In this document: positions 54,949 through 64,000 of the stretch, in pieces
Position numbering within the stretch: position 1 is the stretch's first letter
Layout of the letters: every line of letters begins with the position of its first letter
Assembly: GCA_963812015.1 (NCBI GenBank)
Contig: CAWETI010000003.1
Location: 608,001-672,000, forward strand
Origin: an uncultured delta proteobacterium
GTDB taxonomy: Bacteria > Desulfobacterota > Desulfobaccia > Desulfobaccales > 0-14-0-80-60-11
Reading direction: 5' to 3'
DNA length: 64,000 nt
Translations under genes and position numbers: made by a program
Notes under the pieces: generated by a model
What the model saw: the letters and a program-made list of their open reading frames with translations, nothing else
Databases searched by the model: none
What the model was told of the DNA's origin: nothing

Positions 54949-55824
54949 TTACTGGGTGCCGATGAAGAACGGACGGAAGGCGGACTCGTCCCGGGCCAGG
55001 GCCCGGCGCAATGCCTCGAGCATGGCGTTCCGGTCCTCGGGCAAATGGCCGGTGACCTCGAGGTAGTTGGTGTAATGGTCGCTGGCCACCAGGGTGGGGG
55101 CGGTGATTTGCTCCAGGATGGCCAGGGTTTCCGTGAGCACCTGATGGGGGCTGAGCATCTTAAACCGCCCGGCCTCCACGTCCGCCAGCAACGGGGTTCC
55201 GACCTTGGGGACAAAGGTCCTGAGGCGCACCACGGTCGGCTCCATCTCGCTGATGACCCGGGCGGTCTGACGGGCGTGCGCCTCGGAGCGGTCCTGGCCG
55301 CCGATGCCCAGGATGACGTAAGCGTTGATTTCAATCCCCGCGGCCCGGGCCAGTCGTCCTGCATTGATGTGGTCCCGGGCGGTGGCGCCCTTTTTGATCC
55401 GGGTCAGGATGACGTCATCCCCGCTTTCCACCCCCGCATGAATCCGCCCCAACCCGGCCTGGGCCAGGTCTTTTAGCTGGTCCGGACCTTTGCGGTGGAT
55501 ATAGTGGGACGAACCGTAGACGGTGATCCTCTCAAGGCAGGGAAAGCGGGCGTAGCCGTAACGGCAAATCTCGGCCAAGGCCGCGGTTGGCATGGCGATG
55601 GTGTTGCCCGCCGGGAAAAACAGGGTCCGCACCCGGGAGCCATAAGCTGCCGCAGCCTCATCCAGGTCGGCCTTAATCTCCGCCACCGGCCTCACCTTGA
55701 ACCTGATGCCGCTCTTGTAGACCATGCAGAAGGTGCAGAGGTTGTGGGGGCAGCCCACGGTGGCCTGGACGAGGAGACTGTCGGCTTCACTGGGGGGCCG
55801 GTAAATGGGGCCGTCGTATCGCAT
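54949..55824 (-). CDS. Radical SAM protein of unknown function
   Basis: YRPPSEA, GCPHNLCTFCMVYK, GVESG, ASDH. Confidence 0.88.
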   Translation of the reverse strand: MRYDGPIYRPPSEADSLLVQATVGCPHNLCTFCMVYKSGIRFKVRPVAEIKADLDEAAAAYGSRVRTLFFPAGNTIAMPTAALAEICRYGYARFPCLERITVYGSSHYIHRKGPDQLKDLAQAGLGRIHAGVESGDDVILTRIKKGATARDHINAGRLARAAGIEINAYVILGIGGQDRSEAHARQTARVISEMEPTVVRLRTFVPKVGTPLLADVEAGRFKMLSPHQVLTETLAILEQITAPTLVASDHYTNYLEVTGHLPEDRNAMLEALRRALARDESAFRPFFIGTQ

Positions 55825-55999: not shown

Positions 56000-57283
56000 G
56001 TGGGAGTCAGGCACGAATCCATCATCTGTCCCGGCTGCGGTTGTCTCTGCGATGACCTGGATGTCACTCTATCGGGGGATAAGATCGTTGAGGTCACCAA
56101 CGTCTGCCTCTGGGGCGTAAGCCGCTTTTTCCACGCCAAGAAATTTCATCCCAAAAAAGAGCGTCATCGGCTGCTGACGCCCCTGGTGCGTCATCAAGGG
56201 CGGCGGGAGACGGTGCCGTACGAAACGGCTTTGGCTGCGGCGGCCCAACTGTTGAGCCGGGCCCGCCGGCCGCTCGTCTATGGGCTGACGAATTCCGGCT
56301 GCTTCGCCCAGGCGGCGGCCCTGAAGCTGGCCCGGAGCTTACGGGCCCGGCTGGAACCGGCGGACCTGGCCTTCAAGGCCCCCTATTACCAGAGCGTGCA
56401 ACAACATGGCCTCGCCTGGGCTCCCCTGGAGGTCATCCGGGATGAGGCCGACGCGGTGCTGTTCTGGGGCGCCAATCCCATTCACTCCGCCCCCCGGCAG
56501 GTGGTGCGCTATGCCGTCTTTGCCCGGGGCCGGTACACCGAACGGGGGATAGAAGACCGGCAGGTGGCGGCCGTGGACATCTATAAGACTGAGCTGGCCA
56601 AATTCTGCCCCCTATTCATCAAGGTCCAGCCCGGGCAGGAACTTGACCTGCTTCTGGGAGCCGCCACCATCCTGGCCGGAGAGCCGCCGCCCGAACCCCG
56701 GGTCCGGGGAACCGTGCGGCTGGCCCAATTCCTGGCCAAAGCCACCTGGGGGGTCATCTTTTGCGGCCGGGGGGTCAGTTACGGCCCGGCCCTGGAACTG
56801 TTTGACCGGCTGGCCCGCCTGGTGGGATTCCTGAATCGAGACAAGCCGTTTTTCCTGTTTCCCCTGTCCGGGGACTTCAACTCCAGCGGGCTATACCACC
56901 TGCTGCTCAATGAACTGGGCCAGGCCGGGGCGCCGGATTTCGGGGCGGCGGAGGTGGCGACCCACTACACCCCGGTGGATTTCCGGGAGGTGGACGCGGT
57001 GCTGGTGGCCGGGGCGGATCTCTTGTGGTTCTTGCCGGAGGAGGTGGCGGCGGACCTGAAGCGCCGCCGGGTGCCCATCGTGGCCTTGAGTCCGTTCGCC
57101 AACCGGACCACGGGCCAGGCGGCGGTCATTTTCCCCACGGCCCTGACCGGCATCGAGGCCGAAGAGGTGGCCTACCGGATGGATGGCTTACCCCTGGTCC
57201 TAAAACAGCTGATGCCTTCGGCGCTGCCTCCGGACCATCAGGTGCTGACGGATTTGCACCGGTTGATTGGGGTGCAGGATTGA
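56000..57283 (+). CDS. Formylmethanofuran dehydrogenase subunit B-like protein, apparently lacking the Mo/W ligand
   Basis: CPGCGCLCDD...C cluster motif, ADAVLFWGANP, YRMDGLP; the CHGP motif position reads FKAP. Confidence 0.8.
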   Translation: MGVRHESIICPGCGCLCDDLDVTLSGDKIVEVTNVCLWGVSRFFHAKKFHPKKERHRLLTPLVRHQGRRETVPYETALAAAAQLLSRARRPLVYGLTNSGCFAQAAALKLARSLRARLEPADLAFKAPYYQSVQQHGLAWAPLEVIRDEADAVLFWGANPIHSAPRQVVRYAVFARGRYTERGIEDRQVAAVDIYKTELAKFCPLFIKVQPGQELDLLLGAATILAGEPPPEPRVRGTVRLAQFLAKATWGVIFCGRGVSYGPALELFDRLARLVGFLNRDKPFFLFPLSGDFNSSGLYHLLLNELGQAGAPDFGAAEVATHYTPVDFREVDAVLVAGADLLWFLPEEVAADLKRRRVPIVALSPFANRTTGQAAVIFPTALTGIEAEEVAYRMDGLPLVLKQLMPSALPPDHQVLTDLHRLIGVQD

Positions 57284-57306
57284 GGCTGACGGGGGTTACT
57301 TATAAG

Positions 57307-57429
57307 CTATTTCAAAACCGGTTTATTGTGTCACCCTGGGCGGCAGCGAATGGCCTAGGTTATTGGAAAGGATGGATTCTTCGCTTCGCTCAGCATGACA
57401 AACTGGTGTAAAAAGAGGTTTTGAAATAG
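57307..57429. repeat. Palindromic element with 13 bp outer inverted repeats
   Basis: CTATTTCAAAACC ... GGTTTTGAAATAG enclosing GTCACCCTGGGCGGCAGCGAA...TTCTTCGCTTCGCTCAGCATGAC. Confidence 0.75.
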
Positions 57430-57538
57430 GTTCTAGTGATCAGAGGACGTGCCGGCAGGCCTGAAATGGCGGTCACGGGCCGCCCCAGGGGTTGTCCATC
57501 AATTACTTGTCCCACACTGGCAGGTTGGAGCGTGCGCC

Positions 57539-58912
57539 ATGCGCCTGAAGATTGCCGGAGGTCGCCTTTATGATCCATCCTGTGGCTGGGACGGGGAGAC
57601 CGGCGACCTCTACATCCGGGACGGGTATATGGTGGCGCCGCTCTCCGAGGTGGACCGGGAGATCGAGGCCCGGGGTCAGGTGGTGGCCCCGGCGGGGATC
57701 GAGCTCCGGGGTCAGGTGGCCACCTATGGCCTGGACTTCCTGCGCCTGACCCTGGGGGCGCCCTCTCTTCAGGAATTGGGGGAGAGCTATGCCCTCCTGG
57801 GCTACACTCATGTGCACGAGCCGTTTTTGACGGCCTGGACCGCGGGCTACGTCCAGCGCCAGTTGGTGGGCCTGCCCGTGGTGGACACCTCCGCCTCCCT
57901 GGTGATCAACCTGAGGGATTTTGACCAGTGGCTGCGGTCCCCGGAGCACCTTCAGGAGGTGGGGCAAACCCTGTTGTATCTGCTGGACGAGACCCGCGCC
58001 CTCAATTTCCGGGTGGTGGAGCCTTTTGTGCGCTACCGGCAGGATTTTTACGCCCACCGCACCATCGAACCGGAGCAGGCCCTGGAAATATTGGCCGACC
58101 TGGCCCGGAGGACCGGGTTGCCCCTGTCCCTGGAAGCCTCCCCCGAGGTGCTGCGGGCCCGCCTGCCGGAGCCCGCCGCCTTCCATCTGGCCGCTCTGGG
58201 CCCGGCGCTCACGGACGATGCCCTGGTGGAGGCCGCCCTGGCCCACCTGGAGGCGGGGGCCACGGGAGACCTGGGGCTTATGCGCCCCGGACCTCAGACC
58301 GGACAAACCCACCCCCCGGTCCGGATAGACCTGGGGTGGTTTCGCCCCCTGGACCTCAACCCGCCGGTGGATGAGGCCGCGGCCCGGCGGGCGTTGGCCC
58401 TGGCCCTGTGCTGCCAGGGCTCCCAGGTGGCTTTTTCCGGGGCCGGTCCGGCCCTGGCGCCGGTGACCGAATACCCCCGGCTGTTCTCCTGGCTGTGGGA
58501 CCACGCGGCCCGCCGGCAGGATTGGCAGGATGACCTGGGGGCGCGGCACTATTCGCTGTCGGAGTGGGTCTGGGCCACCCGCACCCTGCCCGCCCGGCTG
58601 CTGGGCCTTGAGGATCGGGGGCGGTTGAGCATAGGCGCCCGGGCCGATGTGGCCATCTATGACATGCCGACGTATGCCCCTCCCGGTCAGTGGCGCCAAT
58701 ACCTGGGCCGCTGCCGTACCCTGCTCAAGGCGGGGGAAGTCGTGGTGGACAACTTTCGGTTGGTGAACCCGGAGGTTTCCCGGGCGATCTATTATCGCCG
58801 CACCGGCGCCGAGTCCACCCCGATGCTGGCGGAAATCTGCCAGTTCCAGAGTTTCCGCTGGGAAAACCTCTGGGTCCCGGAAGCCCTGGGCGGACCCTGG
58901 GTGGGGATTTAG
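57539..58912 (+). CDS. Formylmethanofuran dehydrogenase subunit A-like amidohydrolase-fold protein lacking metal ligands
   Basis: GRLYDP..GWDGE, YALLGYT, YPRLFSWL, TRTLPARLLGL..RGRLSIGARADVAIYD; the DxHxH position reads ELRGQ. Confidence 0.8.
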   Translation: MRLKIAGGRLYDPSCGWDGETGDLYIRDGYMVAPLSEVDREIEARGQVVAPAGIELRGQVATYGLDFLRLTLGAPSLQELGESYALLGYTHVHEPFLTAWTAGYVQRQLVGLPVVDTSASLVINLRDFDQWLRSPEHLQEVGQTLLYLLDETRALNFRVVEPFVRYRQDFYAHRTIEPEQALEILADLARRTGLPLSLEASPEVLRARLPEPAAFHLAALGPALTDDALVEAALAHLEAGATGDLGLMRPGPQTGQTHPPVRIDLGWFRPLDLNPPVDEAAARRALALALCCQGSQVAFSGAGPALAPVTEYPRLFSWLWDHAARRQDWQDDLGARHYSLSEWVWATRTLPARLLGLEDRGRLSIGARADVAIYDMPTYAPPGQWRQYLGRCRTLLKAGEVVVDNFRLVNPEVSRAIYYRRTGAESTPMLAEICQFQSFRWENLWVPEALGGPWVGI

Positions 58913-59067
58913 GTAATGGCCCCTGAACTGAATGCTCAATATTATGGCCCGGTTTTATGAAAGCGGGTTTACAGTCCCCCTTTGAAAAGGGGGGTTAAAG
59001 CCGTTCGGTCGATGGGTCTTTCCCTTAGAGAGAAAGTCTTATAATTTTCGGAATGTAACCAGAGAGT

Positions 59068-59517
59068 ATGGCCACCGCGGAAGAGATTTTGGAATTTTTG
59101 CCCGGCACCGATTGCCGGCAGTGCGGCTTGAGCTGCGCCGAGTTTGCCGGATTTCTCCTGGCCCGGGAACTGCCGCCGGAGGATTGCCCGGTCCTCCACG
59201 AGCCTGATTATGCCGGGTTCATCGAGGCCCTGCACGAACTCCTGGGGCCGGTGGTTGCGGCCCCGGGGATGCGTATCGACCTGGAAAAGTGCAACGGCTG
59301 CGGTATCTGCGTGGCCATGTGCGAATTCCATCTGGGGAACTGCGACGCGGCCCGTCTGGGCAAGGGCCCCCGGCCCCAGGACCGGGTGGTCTTTCACATG
59401 ATCAATGGCACTGCGGTGGTGGTCCACCAGGAATTTTGCACCCGGATGGTCCAGGCGGCGGAGAAGTGCAGCAAGTGTGCGGAGTATTGCCCCACCGAGG
59501 CCATTGAGTTGTTTTGA
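59068..59517 (+). CDS. Ferredoxin: N-terminal RnfB-type FeS domain fused to an FwdG-like 2x[4Fe-4S] domain
   Basis: LPGTDCRQCGLSC...CP; CNGCGICVAMC...GKGP...CSKCAEYCPTEAI. Confidence 0.8.
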   Translation: MATAEEILEFLPGTDCRQCGLSCAEFAGFLLARELPPEDCPVLHEPDYAGFIEALHELLGPVVAAPGMRIDLEKCNGCGICVAMCEFHLGNCDAARLGKGPRPQDRVVFHMINGTAVVVHQEFCTRMVQAAEKCSKCAEYCPTEAIELF

Positions 59518-59852
59518 TCAGCAGTCAGCGGTTAGCAGTTAGTAATCTTATTGAACTGATAAAATTATCGGCATGAATATTTCTCATAATTTTCTTTTAA
59601 TGGCTAATAAATAGTAGCCAATGTAGCGTTTCATAATTAGATGCACATAAATGCAGGCTGGGAGCACCGGACTTGGCAGGTTAAGTCCCCCTTTGAAAAA
59701 GGTGGATTTAAGGGGATTTCAAGCTCTTATAAAAATCCCCCCTGCCCCCCCTTTAGTAAAGGGGGGTAAAAAAAACAGGTTTTCCCGTGTCACCTTAATT
59801 ATGAAACACACCACTATTAGCTAGTGGATATTAGCTAACTGCTAACTGCTGA
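59518..59852. repeat. Nested palindromic elements: heptamer IR enclosing a 12 bp IR enclosing a CCCCCTTT..AAAGGGGG doublet
   Basis: TCAGCAGTCAGCGGTTAGCAGTTAG ... GTTTCATAATTA ... TAATTATGAAAC ... GCTAACTGCTAACTGCTGA. Confidence 0.75.
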
Positions 59853-59861
59853 AGGCCTTTT

Positions 59862-60329
59862 ATGACCGACACCGTAAACCTTCAGGAACTGGACCCCCAG
59901 TTTAAAGACGAAGTGGCCGCCGAGCCCGGATGTCAGCATCTTTTGCGGTGCTTTGCCTGCGGGGTTTGCACCGCCACCTGCCCGGTGAGCGAACTTACCC
60001 CCGGCTTCAGCCCCAGCCAGATCATTCGCCAGATTCTCTACGGTCAACGGGCGGCCCTGCTGGGTTCTCCGGCCCTGTGGCACTGCGCCCGCTGCGCCCG
60101 GTGCTCCTTTCAGTGCCCCCAGGATGTGCGTTTTCTGGATATCATCCAGGGTTTGAGGAATCTGGCCCTGCGGGACGACTTCATCACCCCGGCCCGGGTG
60201 GCCCGATTGGAGCGGGGAGAGCGGCTGATCCAGGAACTCCGGCGACGCCTCATCGGTGAGATCCTGTCCGGCCCCGAAGAGCAGGAGGTCAACGACGCCC
60301 TGGCCCGGCTGGCCGATAAACTGGATTAA
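59862..60329 (+). CDS. hdrC: Heterodisulfide reductase subunit C-like protein
   Basis: CFACGVCTATCP...LWHCARCARCSFQCPQDV. Confidence 0.85.
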   Translation: MTDTVNLQELDPQFKDEVAAEPGCQHLLRCFACGVCTATCPVSELTPGFSPSQIIRQILYGQRAALLGSPALWHCARCARCSFQCPQDVRFLDIIQGLRNLALRDDFITPARVARLERGERLIQELRRRLIGEILSGPEEQEVNDALARLADKLD

Positions 60330-60530
60330 GGAAGTCTCATTACTCAGAGCAAAAAACAAGTTACCTTAACCCCCACCCCAGCCCTCCCCCCTCAAGGGAA
60401 GGGGGCAAGAGGAAGGAACTTCTGTTAATGCCCTGATGGATTGCTTTGGGGGCCCGAAGGCTGAGGCCGGGGCAGGGGCGTCCCGCCGGGTCGCCTCTAC
60501 TCTGCGATTTGTCCAAAGGAGCGCGTGCGT

Positions 60531-63500
60531 GTGATGGCCTCTATCCGGCCATTGGATCGGGTGGCCCACCCCCGGGTACTGGTGGTGGGCGGCGGCATTG
60601 CCGGCATCCAGGCCGCCCTGGAGGTGGCGGCCGCGGGGCTGCCGGTGATCCTGGCGGAAGCGGGCTTGTCCATCGGCGGCCAGATGGCCCAATTGGACAA
60701 GACCTTCCCCACCAACGACTGCGCCATGTGCATCCTGAGCCCCCGGATGCTGGAGATCTCCCGCCACCCCCTGATCACCATCCAGACGTCCACCCAGGTC
60801 TTGCAGGTCCGGGGCCAGGCCGGGGATTTTCAGGTCCTCCTAAGCCGGAGGCCCCGGTGGGTGGACGTGAGCAGATGCACCGGCTGCGGCGAGTGTGTCC
60901 GGGTGTGCCCCCAGAGTCTCCCGGACCCCTATAATCTCGGGTTCAGCCGGACCAAAGCCATTCACGTGCCCTTTCCCCAGGCCATCCCCCAGGCCGCCTC
61001 CATCACCCCGGAGGCCTGCCGGATTTTCCAGGGGAAGAGTTGCGAGGCCTGCGTCCAGGTCTGCCCGGCCGGGGCCATAAATCTTCAGGAGGGGACGGTG
61101 GAATGGACGGAGTCCGTGGGGGCCGTCATTGTCGCCGTGGGTGCGACCCCGGCGCCGGCCGGTGATTTCCCCGGCTATGGTCATCCCGACGTGGTGACCA
61201 GTCTGGAGTTCGAGCGGCTGCTGAGCGCCACCGGTCCCCAGGGCGGCAAGCTGCTGCGGCCGTCGGACCACACCGCACCCGCCCGCCTGGCCTTCATCCA
61301 GTGCGTGGGGTCCAGGGACCCCCAGGCCGGGGCGGCGTATTGTTCGGCCCTGTGCTGCATGTCCAGCCTCAAGGAAGCCCTGGTGGCCCGGGAAATCAGT
61401 CCCCCGGGGGTGGAATCCACCATTTTTTACATGGATTTAAGGGCCCAGGGCAAGGGGTACGAGGGTTATCTGGAGCAAGCCCGGAGTCGCGGCGTCAGCC
61501 TGGTCCGCTCCCGGGTGACTGCGGTAACTCCCCGGACCGAGGGCGGGGTGCTGGTGCGCTCCACCGACCCGCGGGGGCGCCCCCAGGAGCAGCCCTTTGA
61601 TATGGCGGTGCTGGCCGTGGGGCTCCGGGCCGGGGGCAAGCTGCCGGGGTTAGCCAGGTGCCTGGGACTGGAACTCAATGAACACGGGTTCATCAAGACC
61701 TCGGCGTTGCTGCCGGTTTCCACCACCCGGGAGGGAGTGCTGGTCTGCGGCACCGCCCGGGAGCCCATGGACATCCCCGAATCGGTGACCACCGCCTCCG
61801 CGGCGGCGGCGCTGGCCTCCCGGCTGCTCACGACCGCCAGCCGCACCTGGGCTCCCAAGGTTGCGCCGCCTCCCAGCCGGGGCGCGGATTTTCCGCCCCG
61901 AATCGGGGTTTTTCTCTGTCACTGCGGCACCAATATCGCCAAGACCATCGACCTGGCGCACCTGGCGACCAAGGTGGCGAAGCTCCCCGGGGTGGCCCAC
62001 GTGGAAGACAACCTGTTTTCCTGCGCGGTGGAATCCACTACCCGGATGCGGGAAACCATCCAGACCCTGGGGCTCAACCGGGTGGTGGTGGCCGCCTGCA
62101 GTCCCCGGACCCACGAAGGGGTGTTCCGGGAGGTCCTGGCCGCGGCCGGCCTGAACCCGGGCTACTTCGCCTTTGCCAACATCCGGGAACAGTGCGCCTG
62201 GGTCCATCAGACGGAGCCGGAGGCCGCCGGGGAAAAAGCCCTGGACCTCATCGCTATGGCGGTCTCCCGGGCGGCGGTGTTGTCCCCGATCAGGCCCCGG
62301 AGCTTTCCGGTGATTCCCCGGGCCCTGGTGCTGGGGGGCGGGGTGGCAGGCCTGAGCGCAGCGTTGACCCTGGCGGACCAGGGCTTTCACACCTACCTGG
62401 TGGAACGGGAAAGCACCCTGGGGGGACTGGCTCGGGAGCTGTTTTTTACCCTGGAAGGGCCGGACCCCCAGGACTTTCTCCACGCCCTCCAGGCCGCGGT
62501 CTACAGCCACCCCAATATTGAAGTCCATATCCAGACCGAACTGATCCGGGTCAAGGGGCATGTGGGGCAGTTTCAGAGCACCGTGCGCCGCCTCACCATG
62601 AACGGCTTCCAGGAGCGGGAACTTACCCACGGCGTCATCGTGGTGGCCACCGGGGGGCGGGAGTTTCAACCCCAGGGCCGCTATCTCTATGGGGAGGACC
62701 CCCGGGTGCTCACCCAGCGGGAGCTGGAGGGAAAGATCAATTTTAGCGACCTGGATTTGCCCAAAGTCCGGCAGGTGGTGATGATCCAGTGCGTCGGGTC
62801 CCGGGAGCCGGACCACCCCTATTGCAGCCGCCTGTGCTGCTCCCAGGCCCTCAAGAACGCCCTGTTGCTCAAGGAACGCTATCCCCTGATGGAGATTACC
62901 ATCCTCTATCGGGACATGCGGGCCTATGGGTTTCGGGAAAGTTACTATGTCAGGGCCAAGGACAAAGGGGTGGCATTTATTCCCTATGAAGCGGAGCGGC
63001 CTCCCCGCCTGAGCGCGGCCCGGCGGCGGCCCCTGACGGTTTGGGTCCAGGATGAGCTTTTGGGCCAGGAAGTGGCCCTGGCCGCGGACCTGGTGGTCTT
63101 GAGCACCGGGATCGAGCCGGCGGCGGGGAGCGATCAAGTAGCCCAACAGCTGAGGGTGTCCCAGACCCTGGACGGGTGGTTCCAGGAGGCCCATCAGAAA
63201 CTGCGGCCGGTGGATTCGGCCACCGAAGGGGTGTTTTTCTGCGGCATGGCCCACTATCCCAAGAGTTTAGGGGAAACCGCGGCCCAGGCCCAGGCCGCGG
63301 CCAGCCGGGCCGCGGGGATTCTCTTCCAGACGGAGCTGCTGGCGGGGGAGATGGTGGCCATGATCACCCCGGAGGCCTGCCGCCGCTGCCTGTCCTGTGT
63401 GGAGAACTGCCCCTTCGGGGCGGTGCAGGTGGTGGATACCAGACCGAAGGTGCGCCCGGAGCTCTGCCGGGGCTGCGGGGTCTGTGCGGCGGAATGTCCG

Positions 63501-63578
63501 GAGGGGGCCATCCACATGAGCCGGGGCAGCGATGCGGAGTTTGCCGTCCAGATTGAGGCGGCGATGGGGGGGAGTTGA
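60531..63578 (+). CDS. hdrA: Large heterodisulfide reductase subunit A-like protein (two FAD modules)
   Basis: VGGGIAG, LDKTFPTNDCAMC, QCVGSRD..YCS..CC, VFLCHCG, AACSPRTHE, second GGGVAG and QCVGSRE, C-terminal ferredoxin. Confidence 0.92.
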   Translation: MMASIRPLDRVAHPRVLVVGGGIAGIQAALEVAAAGLPVILAEAGLSIGGQMAQLDKTFPTNDCAMCILSPRMLEISRHPLITIQTSTQVLQVRGQAGDFQVLLSRRPRWVDVSRCTGCGECVRVCPQSLPDPYNLGFSRTKAIHVPFPQAIPQAASITPEACRIFQGKSCEACVQVCPAGAINLQEGTVEWTESVGAVIVAVGATPAPAGDFPGYGHPDVVTSLEFERLLSATGPQGGKLLRPSDHTAPARLAFIQCVGSRDPQAGAAYCSALCCMSSLKEALVAREISPPGVESTIFYMDLRAQGKGYEGYLEQARSRGVSLVRSRVTAVTPRTEGGVLVRSTDPRGRPQEQPFDMAVLAVGLRAGGKLPGLARCLGLELNEHGFIKTSALLPVSTTREGVLVCGTAREPMDIPESVTTASAAAALASRLLTTASRTWAPKVAPPPSRGADFPPRIGVFLCHCGTNIAKTIDLAHLATKVAKLPGVAHVEDNLFSCAVESTTRMRETIQTLGLNRVVVAACSPRTHEGVFREVLAAAGLNPGYFAFANIREQCAWVHQTEPEAAGEKALDLIAMAVSRAAVLSPIRPRSFPVIPRALVLGGGVAGLSAALTLADQGFHTYLVERESTLGGLARELFFTLEGPDPQDFLHALQAAVYSHPNIEVHIQTELIRVKGHVGQFQSTVRRLTMNGFQERELTHGVIVVATGGREFQPQGRYLYGEDPRVLTQRELEGKINFSDLDLPKVRQVVMIQCVGSREPDHPYCSRLCCSQALKNALLLKERYPLMEITILYRDMRAYGFRESYYVRAKDKGVAFIPYEAERPPRLSAARRRPLTVWVQDELLGQEVALAADLVVLSTGIEPAAGSDQVAQQLRVSQTLDGWFQEAHQKLRPVDSATEGVFFCGMAHYPKSLGETAAQAQAAASRAAGILFQTELLAGEMVAMITPEACRRCLSCVENCPFGAVQVVDTRPKVRPELCRGCGVCAAECPEGAIHMSRGSDAEFAVQIEAAMGGS

Positions 63579-63905: not shown

Positions 63906-64000
63906 ATGAGAGAGAGTTATTGCGGTCTGTGTGACGATTGCCAGTTGGGCAACCCAGGCTTTATGGAGACGGTCTCCCGGCTGAAGGACTACCTAGGCCG
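63906..64000 (+). CDS. Start of a Cys-rich protein (DUF3795-like), truncated by the window edge
   Basis: AGGAG SD, then MRESYCGLCDDCQLG... Confidence 0.5.
   Translation, partial: MRESYCGLCDDCQLGNPGFMETVSRLKDYLG

Follow-up and report, generated by a model that had tools for sequence, protein, structure and literature searches.

Why would a bacterium maintain both catalytic subunits of formylmethanofuran dehydrogenase (Fwd/Fmd) beside heterodisulfide reductase (Hdr) genes if neither subunit retains its metal ligands? The question is raised by positions 56000 to 63578 of a 64,000-nucleotide window (the whole stretch analyzed: positions 608,001 to 672,000 of contig CAWETI010000003.1, assembly GCA_963812015.1) from an uncultured member of the Desulfobaccia (Desulfobacterota), hereafter the class. 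An earlier note, made from the sequence alone, had described five intact, co-oriented open reading frames (ORFs) here, and we confirmed these at all five coordinate sets. The cluster is real and conserved, appears to be undescribed, and probably encodes a pseudoenzyme scaffold within an Hdr complex. Both catalytic subunits are under selection with their metal sites gone, probably as the frame for an iron-sulfur (FeS) wire on a flavin complex. We write B* and A* for the proteins of fwdB* and fwdA* and G000 for the source genome; f-codes denote families and g8 a genus. The genes are as follows, the last three lying beyond the window.

56000..57283, + strand: fwdB*, 427 aa from a GTG start; FwdB fold without the tungsten/molybdenum (W/Mo)-ligand Cys or the catalytic His/Arg/His; C10, C13, C17, and C36 kept
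57539..58912, + strand: fwdA*, FwdA-fold amidohydrolase of 457 aa with all six binuclear-site ligands replaced
59068..59517, + strand: fwdG-like gene, 149 aa; N-terminal PF04060 FeS domain, then two ferredoxin motifs (2x[4Fe-4S])
59862..60329, + strand: hdrC by family match, with no hdrB adjoining
60534..63578, + strand: tandem HdrA; a pair of FAD domains that complement each other in their N-terminal FeS domain and in their inserted and C-terminal ferredoxins
63906..64000 and past the window end (G000:C3 671906-672322), + strand: DUF3795 gene
G000:C3 672473-673315: FwdF-like polyferredoxin, 280 aa; its four best PDB matches are FwdF/FmdF-type chains
G000:C3 673336-675738: HdrA-MvhD fusion; MvhD part PF02662, E 8e-49
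G000:C3 676087-677703: further HdrA

Because the cluster runs beyond the window, the note's statement that it has no mvhD was a window-edge artifact: an MvhD fused to HdrA lies past base 64000. The absence of fwdC, fwdD, ftr, and hdrB from the cluster was borne out. Based on their best family and PDB matches, the five ORFs are FwdB, FwdA, FwdG, HdrC, and tandem HdrA, each under its curated equivalog cutoff (NCBIfam bit scores of 279.5 against 327.8 for FwdB and 112.6 against 392.75 for FwdA). The FwdG-like protein had two PDB matches only, both FwdG-type chains.

We mapped the ligands of A* and B* by sequence alignments and barrel topology. Aligned to 5t5i_B, B* has F125 and K126 in place of Cys118 and His119 and S290 and D292 in place of Arg288 and His290 (for the roles of these FwdB residues, see PMC6926001 and PMC11656701; papers are cited throughout for the parts of their text that were available). 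The four N-terminal cysteines of the [4Fe-4S] cluster are present, in line with the note's reading of a FwdB without metal ligands that keeps this motif. Among 39 B* orthologues from the class, none has Cys in the ligand column (0/39) or Arg at column 290 (0/39), and all have the four cluster cysteines (39/39). Judged from these columns, B* cannot bind a W/Mo bis-pyranopterin guanine dinucleotide in the FwdB manner. Selenocysteine at the ligand site was ruled out, as the frame has no internal TGA.

The predicted fold of B* is confident (predicted local distance difference test [pLDDT] of 91.8) and close to FwdB (template modeling [TM] score of 0.93 to 5t5m_B and 0.67 to FhcB), and the protein retains a W156-N159-P160-H162-R166 motif and D193. 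This fold, the kept proximal cluster, and the part of the pterin-side motifs that survives would suit a B* that binds a W/Mo-pterin without any protein ligand, with domain IV supplied in trans, and acts as an oxidoreductase on an unknown substrate; AioA has no amino acid ligand to its metal (PMC10100899). We consider this very improbable, as Cys, His, Arg, and His have each disappeared and the families share no common substitute for them, domain IV is critical for capping the cofactor (PMC6926001), and no free fwdD or domain IV gene was found in G000, where 9/9 PF01568 matches sit in frames of at least 544 aa.

The six columns of the FwdA binuclear site (four His, a carboxy-Lys, and an Asp, as defined in PMC11656701) read R57, Q59, R158, E199, A219, and A302 in A*. 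All are substituted, and by this mapping A* has no binuclear site, so that for this locus the earlier claim of metal ligands lost from both A and B despite intact frames was upheld. The same substitutions recur in the orthologues within the class (39 B* and 138 A* sequences): His57 was found in 1 of the 138 A* sequences, His59 in 1, Lys158 in 0, His219 in 0, and Asp302 in 1. One MAFFT run had suggested H216 as a surviving His231, which we rejected because f47, archaeal, and canonical rows put His231 at E199 and His271 at A219. With 457 aa against about 550 to 570 aa for canonical FwdA, A* is missing six canonical-FwdA blocks (68 columns); its predicted fold (pLDDT, 91.4) is FwdA-like (TM score of 0.84 to 5t5i_A). 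An ESM Atlas search returned amidohydrolase and Fhc names only.

The arrangement recurs across the class. B lies directly upstream of A in 12/12 loci from named GTDB records, G, hdrC, and tandem hdrA continue in the 11/11 of these with downstream sequence, and the polyferredoxin and HdrA-MvhD are also present in 8/9 that are long enough. The records are titled Desulfobaccales, Desulfobacca, unclassified deltaproteobacteria, and, in one case, Actinomycetota; the cluster begins abruptly inside B in this last record, which is probably misbinned. Among the matches listed for 17 further class loci, G was found in 17 and HdrC, tandem HdrA, and DUF3795 in 16 each (one contig ends), with a polyferredoxin at the locus in at least 10/17. 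For loci without it, the polyferredoxin-HdrA/MvhD-HdrA unit sits elsewhere (seven class regions examined). B* was detected in 56/83 class genomes, comprising 55/68 outside genus g8 and 1/15 within it (E < 1e-100). B* and the polyferredoxin were both present in 54 of the 83 genomes and both absent from 23, with B* only in 2 and polyferredoxin only in 4, although kin are not independent in these counts and 14/23 double absences come from one genus. A* and B* are thus conserved and co-inherited with FwdG, the FwdF-like polyferredoxin, HdrC, tandem HdrA, and the HdrA-MvhD/HdrA pair. Conservation of the hdr linkage, on which the earlier reading leaned, holds in class loci with enough sequence; outside the class it is seen in 9/15 loci only.

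The median pairwise ratio of nonsynonymous to synonymous substitution rates (dN/dS) was 0.195 for B* (17 pairs), 0.229 for A* (15), and 0.255 for tandem HdrA (7), calculated by the Nei-Gojobori method against G000 for pairs with ≥76% identity; these pairs cannot be counted as independent, and certain genomes are represented by more than one locus. All seven genes fell between 0.15 and 0.26, with A* and B* within the range of the redox subunits. The note had named neutral evolution as a possible refutation; at about 0.2, like HdrA, A* and B* are instead under purifying selection in the class. That the pair is a decaying relic, pseudogenes hitchhiking in an hdr operon, is scarcely credible and largely refuted by these ratios. 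Catalytic residues have been lost repeatedly, and the cluster is absent from 14/15 g8 genomes and from several near-complete genomes, but the frames stay full length at identities as low as 47 to 62% within the class and roughly 30% outside it, and the predicted folds are confident and native-like. Three loci (L018, L023, and L026) are frameshifted throughout; the hdr genes are broken in them too, which points to assembly error.

We found no second fwdA or fwdB and no fwdC, ftr, or mch in G000 (completeness, 99.86%; contamination, 5.72%) using searches whose controls were positive in methanogens, so the canonical operon that the note had proposed to look for elsewhere in the genome was not found. 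The genome has neither the FwdD (domain IV) and FwdC nor the Ftr/Mch and C1-carrier synthesis of a Fwd/Fmd system. RFAP synthase, MptN, Mtd-like, and MfnB-like queries from relatives' canonical clusters had no match in G000 either; the names Mtd and MfnB are our presumed labels for the query proteins. Many further hdrA and CCG-domain genes do occur in G000, in clusters of their own. An orphan CCG gene (an "hdrB" near nagZ-like genes), which we take to be LutA-like, was rejected as a partner in trans, having no match to the genome's hdrB genes (E 1e-5) or to other fetched loci.

Canonical fwd clusters with intact ligands are found in few Desulfobacterota (L059 at G038:C1:3250000-3269999, L060 on G042:C4, L119, and L120), and the G038 set comes with ftr, mch, fwdC, MptA, RFAP synthase, and MptN. 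Within the class such sets are confined to two genomes of g8, a genus mostly without the disarmed cluster. FwdC was found in 2/83 class genomes, each of which has a canonical cluster but lacks B*, and ftr in 2/401 sampled genomes of the phylum, both with canonical fwd.

A B* profile matched 48/401 sampled phylum genomes (E ≤ 1e-30). Among 20 regions fetched outside the class, 14 carry B*, A*, and G, and 1 more has B* and A* where its contig ends; these 15 belong to families f47, f16, f81, and f46. The remainder comprise two canonical clusters, two members of another FwdB clade (with G, no A), and one archaeal-looking contig. All of the nonclass B* proteins lack the ligand Cys and have the cluster cysteines. 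An hdrA flanks the trio in 6/6 f47 and 3/3 f81 loci, and FwdC stayed below the cutoff in 5/5 tested genomes of f47, f81, and f16. The archaeal-looking contig (L115, G358:C11; 6 kb) sits in a bacterial genome assembly and carries a FwdB that matches a protein named "Candidatus Alkanophaga" FwdB exactly; it is likely contamination. The note's view that A and B are both dead fits the class and fails for f47 and Alkanophaga, whose A keeps six ligands. The short six-ligand FwdA of f47 (L107 to L110, L125, and L126), with no FwdC or Ftr, is a candidate live hydrolase for an N-formyl substrate. The f47 genomes also contain a second, unrelated FwdB-like clade (L121:7158-8761 and L122:8544-11127) with FwdG-like and FwdD-like neighbors and no FwdA, near CdhA; of its two copies, one retains the Cys and one does not.

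What, then, would two disarmed subunits be attached to? In the tandem HdrA, flavin domain 1 has an inserted ferredoxin and a cysteine motif completing its partner's cluster, and flavin domain 2 has an N-terminal FeS domain and a C-terminal ferredoxin, a complementary layout as in fused ANME HdrA (PMC9012536). The HdrA-MvhD/HdrA pair is complementary in the same way. The Glu/Lys pair (Glu356/Lys409) linked to bifurcation in HdrA (PMC12054007) is retained in tandem HdrA in 28/28 and 28/28 and in 24/28 and 25/28 sequences, and all four flavin domains of the cluster retain both residues (mapping inferred in both cases, from an alignment to 8rvu for the four domains). The idea that HdrA domain 1 has lost its bifurcation Lys was rejected, as the proper columns are conserved. 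The cluster thus has the flavin domains and FeS motifs of a bifurcating HdrABC-MvhD complex, again by inferred mapping, and no HdrB.

An A*-B* complex was modeled with a score of 0.92 (best of three controls, 0.00; runs agreeing in ≥96% of contacts; partner pLDDT, 91), a mark reached by 116/157 solved complexes and 2/215 mismatched pairs; as the FwdAB structure is already solved, this score shows likeness, not binding. With that proviso, the FwdA, FwdB, FwdF, and FwdG folds and the A-B interface of Fwd/Fmd are all present. In methanogens, FmdF passes electrons from HdrA to the CO2-reducing site (PMC13580544). Since the Hdr-to-Fwd wire is kept, its sink is gone, and an A*-B* dimer is predicted, A*B* would be the frame and the FeS domain of G or the polyferredoxin the outlet. 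The reading we favor, with a probability somewhat better than even, is that A*B* is a noncatalytic frame that supports a FwdG/FwdF wire on an HdrA module with four flavins, and that low-potential electrons are exchanged with ferredoxin or CO dehydrogenase (CODH). The product would be a soluble multiflavin electron-transfer complex, derived from an archaeal-type Hdr-Fwd supercomplex with a disarmed CO2-reducing end. A* and B* would still form the A-B dimer, holding FwdG and, via FwdG, the polyferredoxin in place, and the [4Fe-4S] cluster of B* would be a structural dead end. Electrons may enter or leave via MvhD, HdrC, the polyferredoxin, and the extra FeS domain of FwdG, with the HdrA flavins bifurcating or confurcating them. 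The likeliest use might be the coupling of a pool of higher potential to low-potential electrons that ferredoxin or CO dehydrogenase supplies, and HdrB or another terminal subunit could conceivably be supplied in trans. The earlier suggestion of a scaffold, wire, or ligand sensor on an HdrA module holds best for scaffold and wire; the module is larger than had been proposed, and the ligand sensor gained no direct support.

Several observations weigh against this frame-and-wire reading. The cluster itself encodes no HdrB, electron donor, or acceptor, nor did we identify any. The CODH/ACS (acetyl-CoA synthase) genes of G000 are unlinked to the cluster, and ACS is present in 12/15 g8 genomes although 14/15 lack the cluster, a distribution that does not support a tie between the cluster and ACS presence. 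The complex model covers A*-B* only and contains no G-F-HdrA contact. No hdrA lies beside the trio in f16 (0/4 loci) or f46 (0/2), and in f47 an A* with all six ligands stands beside a Cys-less B*. In class A*, R57, R158, E161, E199, H91, H93, and E94 are nearly invariant and could form a rebuilt site. Finally, the wire's need for a whole A subunit is unexplained, which keeps a ligand-binding alternative alive.

That alternative is a neofunctionalized A*B* that gates or senses for Hdr, either by taking up a small anion or nucleotide in the enclosed cavity between its two former active sites or by a metal-free or one-metal reaction of A*. The near-invariant Arg, Glu, and His at the barrel mouth of the 138 class sequences speak for it, as do a derived strand-2 His (H91) invariant in 14/14 deep A* sequences, the motif and D193 kept in B*, and the retention of A* in 15/15 loci outside the class. 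We nevertheless regard it as unlikely: the residues replacing the six ligands differ among families, which fits a filled, unused site.

The gaps in hdrA linkage outside the class (6/15 loci) bear on another possibility, that B*, A*, and G are a unit of their own docking on CO dehydrogenase/acetyl-CoA synthase or another partner, with hdr merely a coregulated neighbor. CdhA lies directly downstream of A in 2/6 f47 loci, CdhC lies upstream of the trio in 1/2 f46 loci, and the separate FwdB-like clade of L121 and L122 is also near CdhA. We judge this decidedly improbable, given that hdr genes are linked to the trio in every class locus long enough to show it and in 9/9 f47 and f81 loci, and given the retention of the trio together with the polyferredoxin-HdrA-MvhD half even when the two are unlinked, and the presence of ACS in genomes without the cluster.

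Among the systems nearest to the cluster are the methanogen Hdr-Fwd/Fmd supercomplexes (Methanospirillum hungatei Fdh-Hdr-Fmd and Methanothermobacter marburgensis Mvh-Hdr-Fmd; PMC13580544), whose chains are the best PDB matches of its proteins; homologues of FwdA, FwdB, FwdF, FwdG, HdrA, HdrC, and MvhD occur in one gene set. Unlike these, it has no FwdC, FwdD, HdrB, hydrogenase, Fdh, W/Mo or Zn ligands, or methanofuran/tetrahydromethanopterin pathway, and its four HdrA flavin domains form complementary pairs. The type II hdrA-mvhD-fdhB cluster of ANME-2/3 and Methanolobus (PMC12054007) includes a Cys118-less molybdopterin-fold protein (Molybdop), proposed to be a structural part of a complex that also contains MvhD and an HdrA with two flavins. 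Molybdop is homologous to FdhA and always accompanied by fdhB and hdrBC, and its proposed donor is F420H2, whereas here the subunit is FwdB derived and bacterial, stands with a disarmed FwdA, FwdG, and FwdF, and has no evident donor and no fdhB or hdrB among the cluster genes. By family, by structure, and in the B tree described below, B* groups with FwdB. In FhcABCD of Methylorubrum extorquens (PMC6926001), FhcB is a FwdB descendant without Cys118, His119, Arg288, or FwdD that serves as a scaffold; its [4Fe-4S] domain is gone, and it accompanies an active FhcA that works with FhcC, FhcD, and methylofuran. In the present case, by contrast, B retains its [4Fe-4S] cluster and A is the disarmed subunit; there is no C or Ftr, but the wire subunits remain. 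By these comparisons the cluster is neither Fwd, Fhc, nor a complete HdrABC; in function it would correspond to the wiring half of an Hdr-Fwd supercomplex.

A literature search of the text portions available found no paper on the cluster or on the short FwdA family, with supplementary gene tables outside the search. A 2011 survey of sulfate-reducer energy metabolism may mention such clusters. Cys-less members have been noted within FwdB data sets, in the available text without a description of this group (PMC10100899). The note's remark that the system is not recognizable as described holds insofar as we did not find this cluster in print; a cofactor-less molybdopterin-fold subunit in an HdrA cluster does have precedent (PMC12054007), and this Molybdop and FhcB are the nearest published concepts.

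Where did the pair come from? A deep-A* profile recovered short FwdA-like proteins named Methanophagales, ANME-1, and "Candidatus Alkanophaga." A quick tree search on 64 A rows put a long branch, with support of 100, between the short family and 17 canonical proteins. In the more careful B tree (38 rows hand-picked from 90- and 81-row quick trees, with four "bacterial" and three "archaeal" rows lacking a named source and pL123 on a long branch), archaeal Cys-His and Cys-less rows stand opposite 18 canonical rows across a 100/100 branch, with the Cys-less rows on one side at 99/99. The 39 nearest relatives of the G358:C11 FwdB, several of them named ANME-1/Methanophagales, have Cys-His in 39/39 and Lys for Arg288 in 38. 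All six A ligands are intact in f47, Alkanophaga, and a few unnamed short FwdA proteins, and most ANME-1 proteins have Arg for His231. In the Desulfobaccia, f81, f16, and f46, nothing of the site is left, and the replacing residues differ between families (RQREAA, GPREHL, AHYPRR, and YVLWGA are found). The ANME-1/Alkanophaga proteins are thus a sister lineage in both trees and share a short A with a common strand-2 and C-terminal signature, but the archaeal B keeps Cys-His and the archaeal A keeps most ligands and stands alone in the loci seen. A fwdB adjoins the short FwdA in 0/20 non-f47 metagenome loci examined, many on short contigs. We found no functional description of these divergent archaeal proteins, which are known from database entries (P0385 to P0423 and P0298 to P0335), some misnamed allantoinase or nitrate reductase.

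Based on these trees, a paralogous FwdAB lineage shared with ANME-1/Alkanophagales may have lost its pterin ligand once and its Zn ligands several times. An archaeal origin of FwdB has been argued (PMC10100899). A bolder scenario, to which we give a low probability, is that a second FwdAB lineage, active-looking in ANME-1/Alkanophaga, passed to Desulfobacterota and changed there in steps, initially to a B without pterin beside a short hydrolase that was still live (f47) and then to a double pseudoenzyme whose sealed metabolite-binding cavity regulates a four-flavin bifurcating complex.

The cluster suggests that the methanogen Hdr-Fwd architecture was reused in bacteria with both catalytic centers removed and the wire kept, the opposite of Fhc. 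It offers a graded series for the origin of pseudoenzymes in redox complexes, from the archaeal Cys-keeping B through the live-looking A of f47 to the fully disarmed Desulfobaccia, and points to an electron-transfer route that most Desulfobaccia, which include a cultured representative, have conserved. It also draws attention to a FwdAB paralogue of ANME-1 that awaits study. Since the metal sites are gone from conserved A* and B*, a "FwdA/FwdB" label here does not mean CO2 fixation; many such proteins are annotated as formylmethanofuran dehydrogenase subunit A or B and would be miscounted as methanogenesis or CO2 fixation genes in metagenomes.

Some minor features of the locus complete its description. 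A promoter/terminator scan gave signal at shuffle level. Contigs from four wetland RNA runs covered 30/30 bins at 85% likeness; these are relatives' contigs without strand or level, and we did not use them as support. The stretch 59683-59719 is matched by many unrelated RNA contigs. Spacers at 57284-57538, 59518-59861, and 60330-60524 (200 to 340 bp) contain palindromic stretches resembling repetitive extragenic palindromes; relatives' spacers are short or missing. In several genera (L066, L067, and L071 to L074), a cyclophilin-type peptidyl-prolyl isomerase gene lies between B* and A*. A radical SAM gene (54949-55824, - strand), divergent from fwdB*, is retained in genus-level relatives and not in farther genera. 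Downstream of the last HdrA are what we take to be cobalamin genes, and a second, stand-alone DUF3795 paralogue (56% identity) lies at G000:C3:826960-827358.

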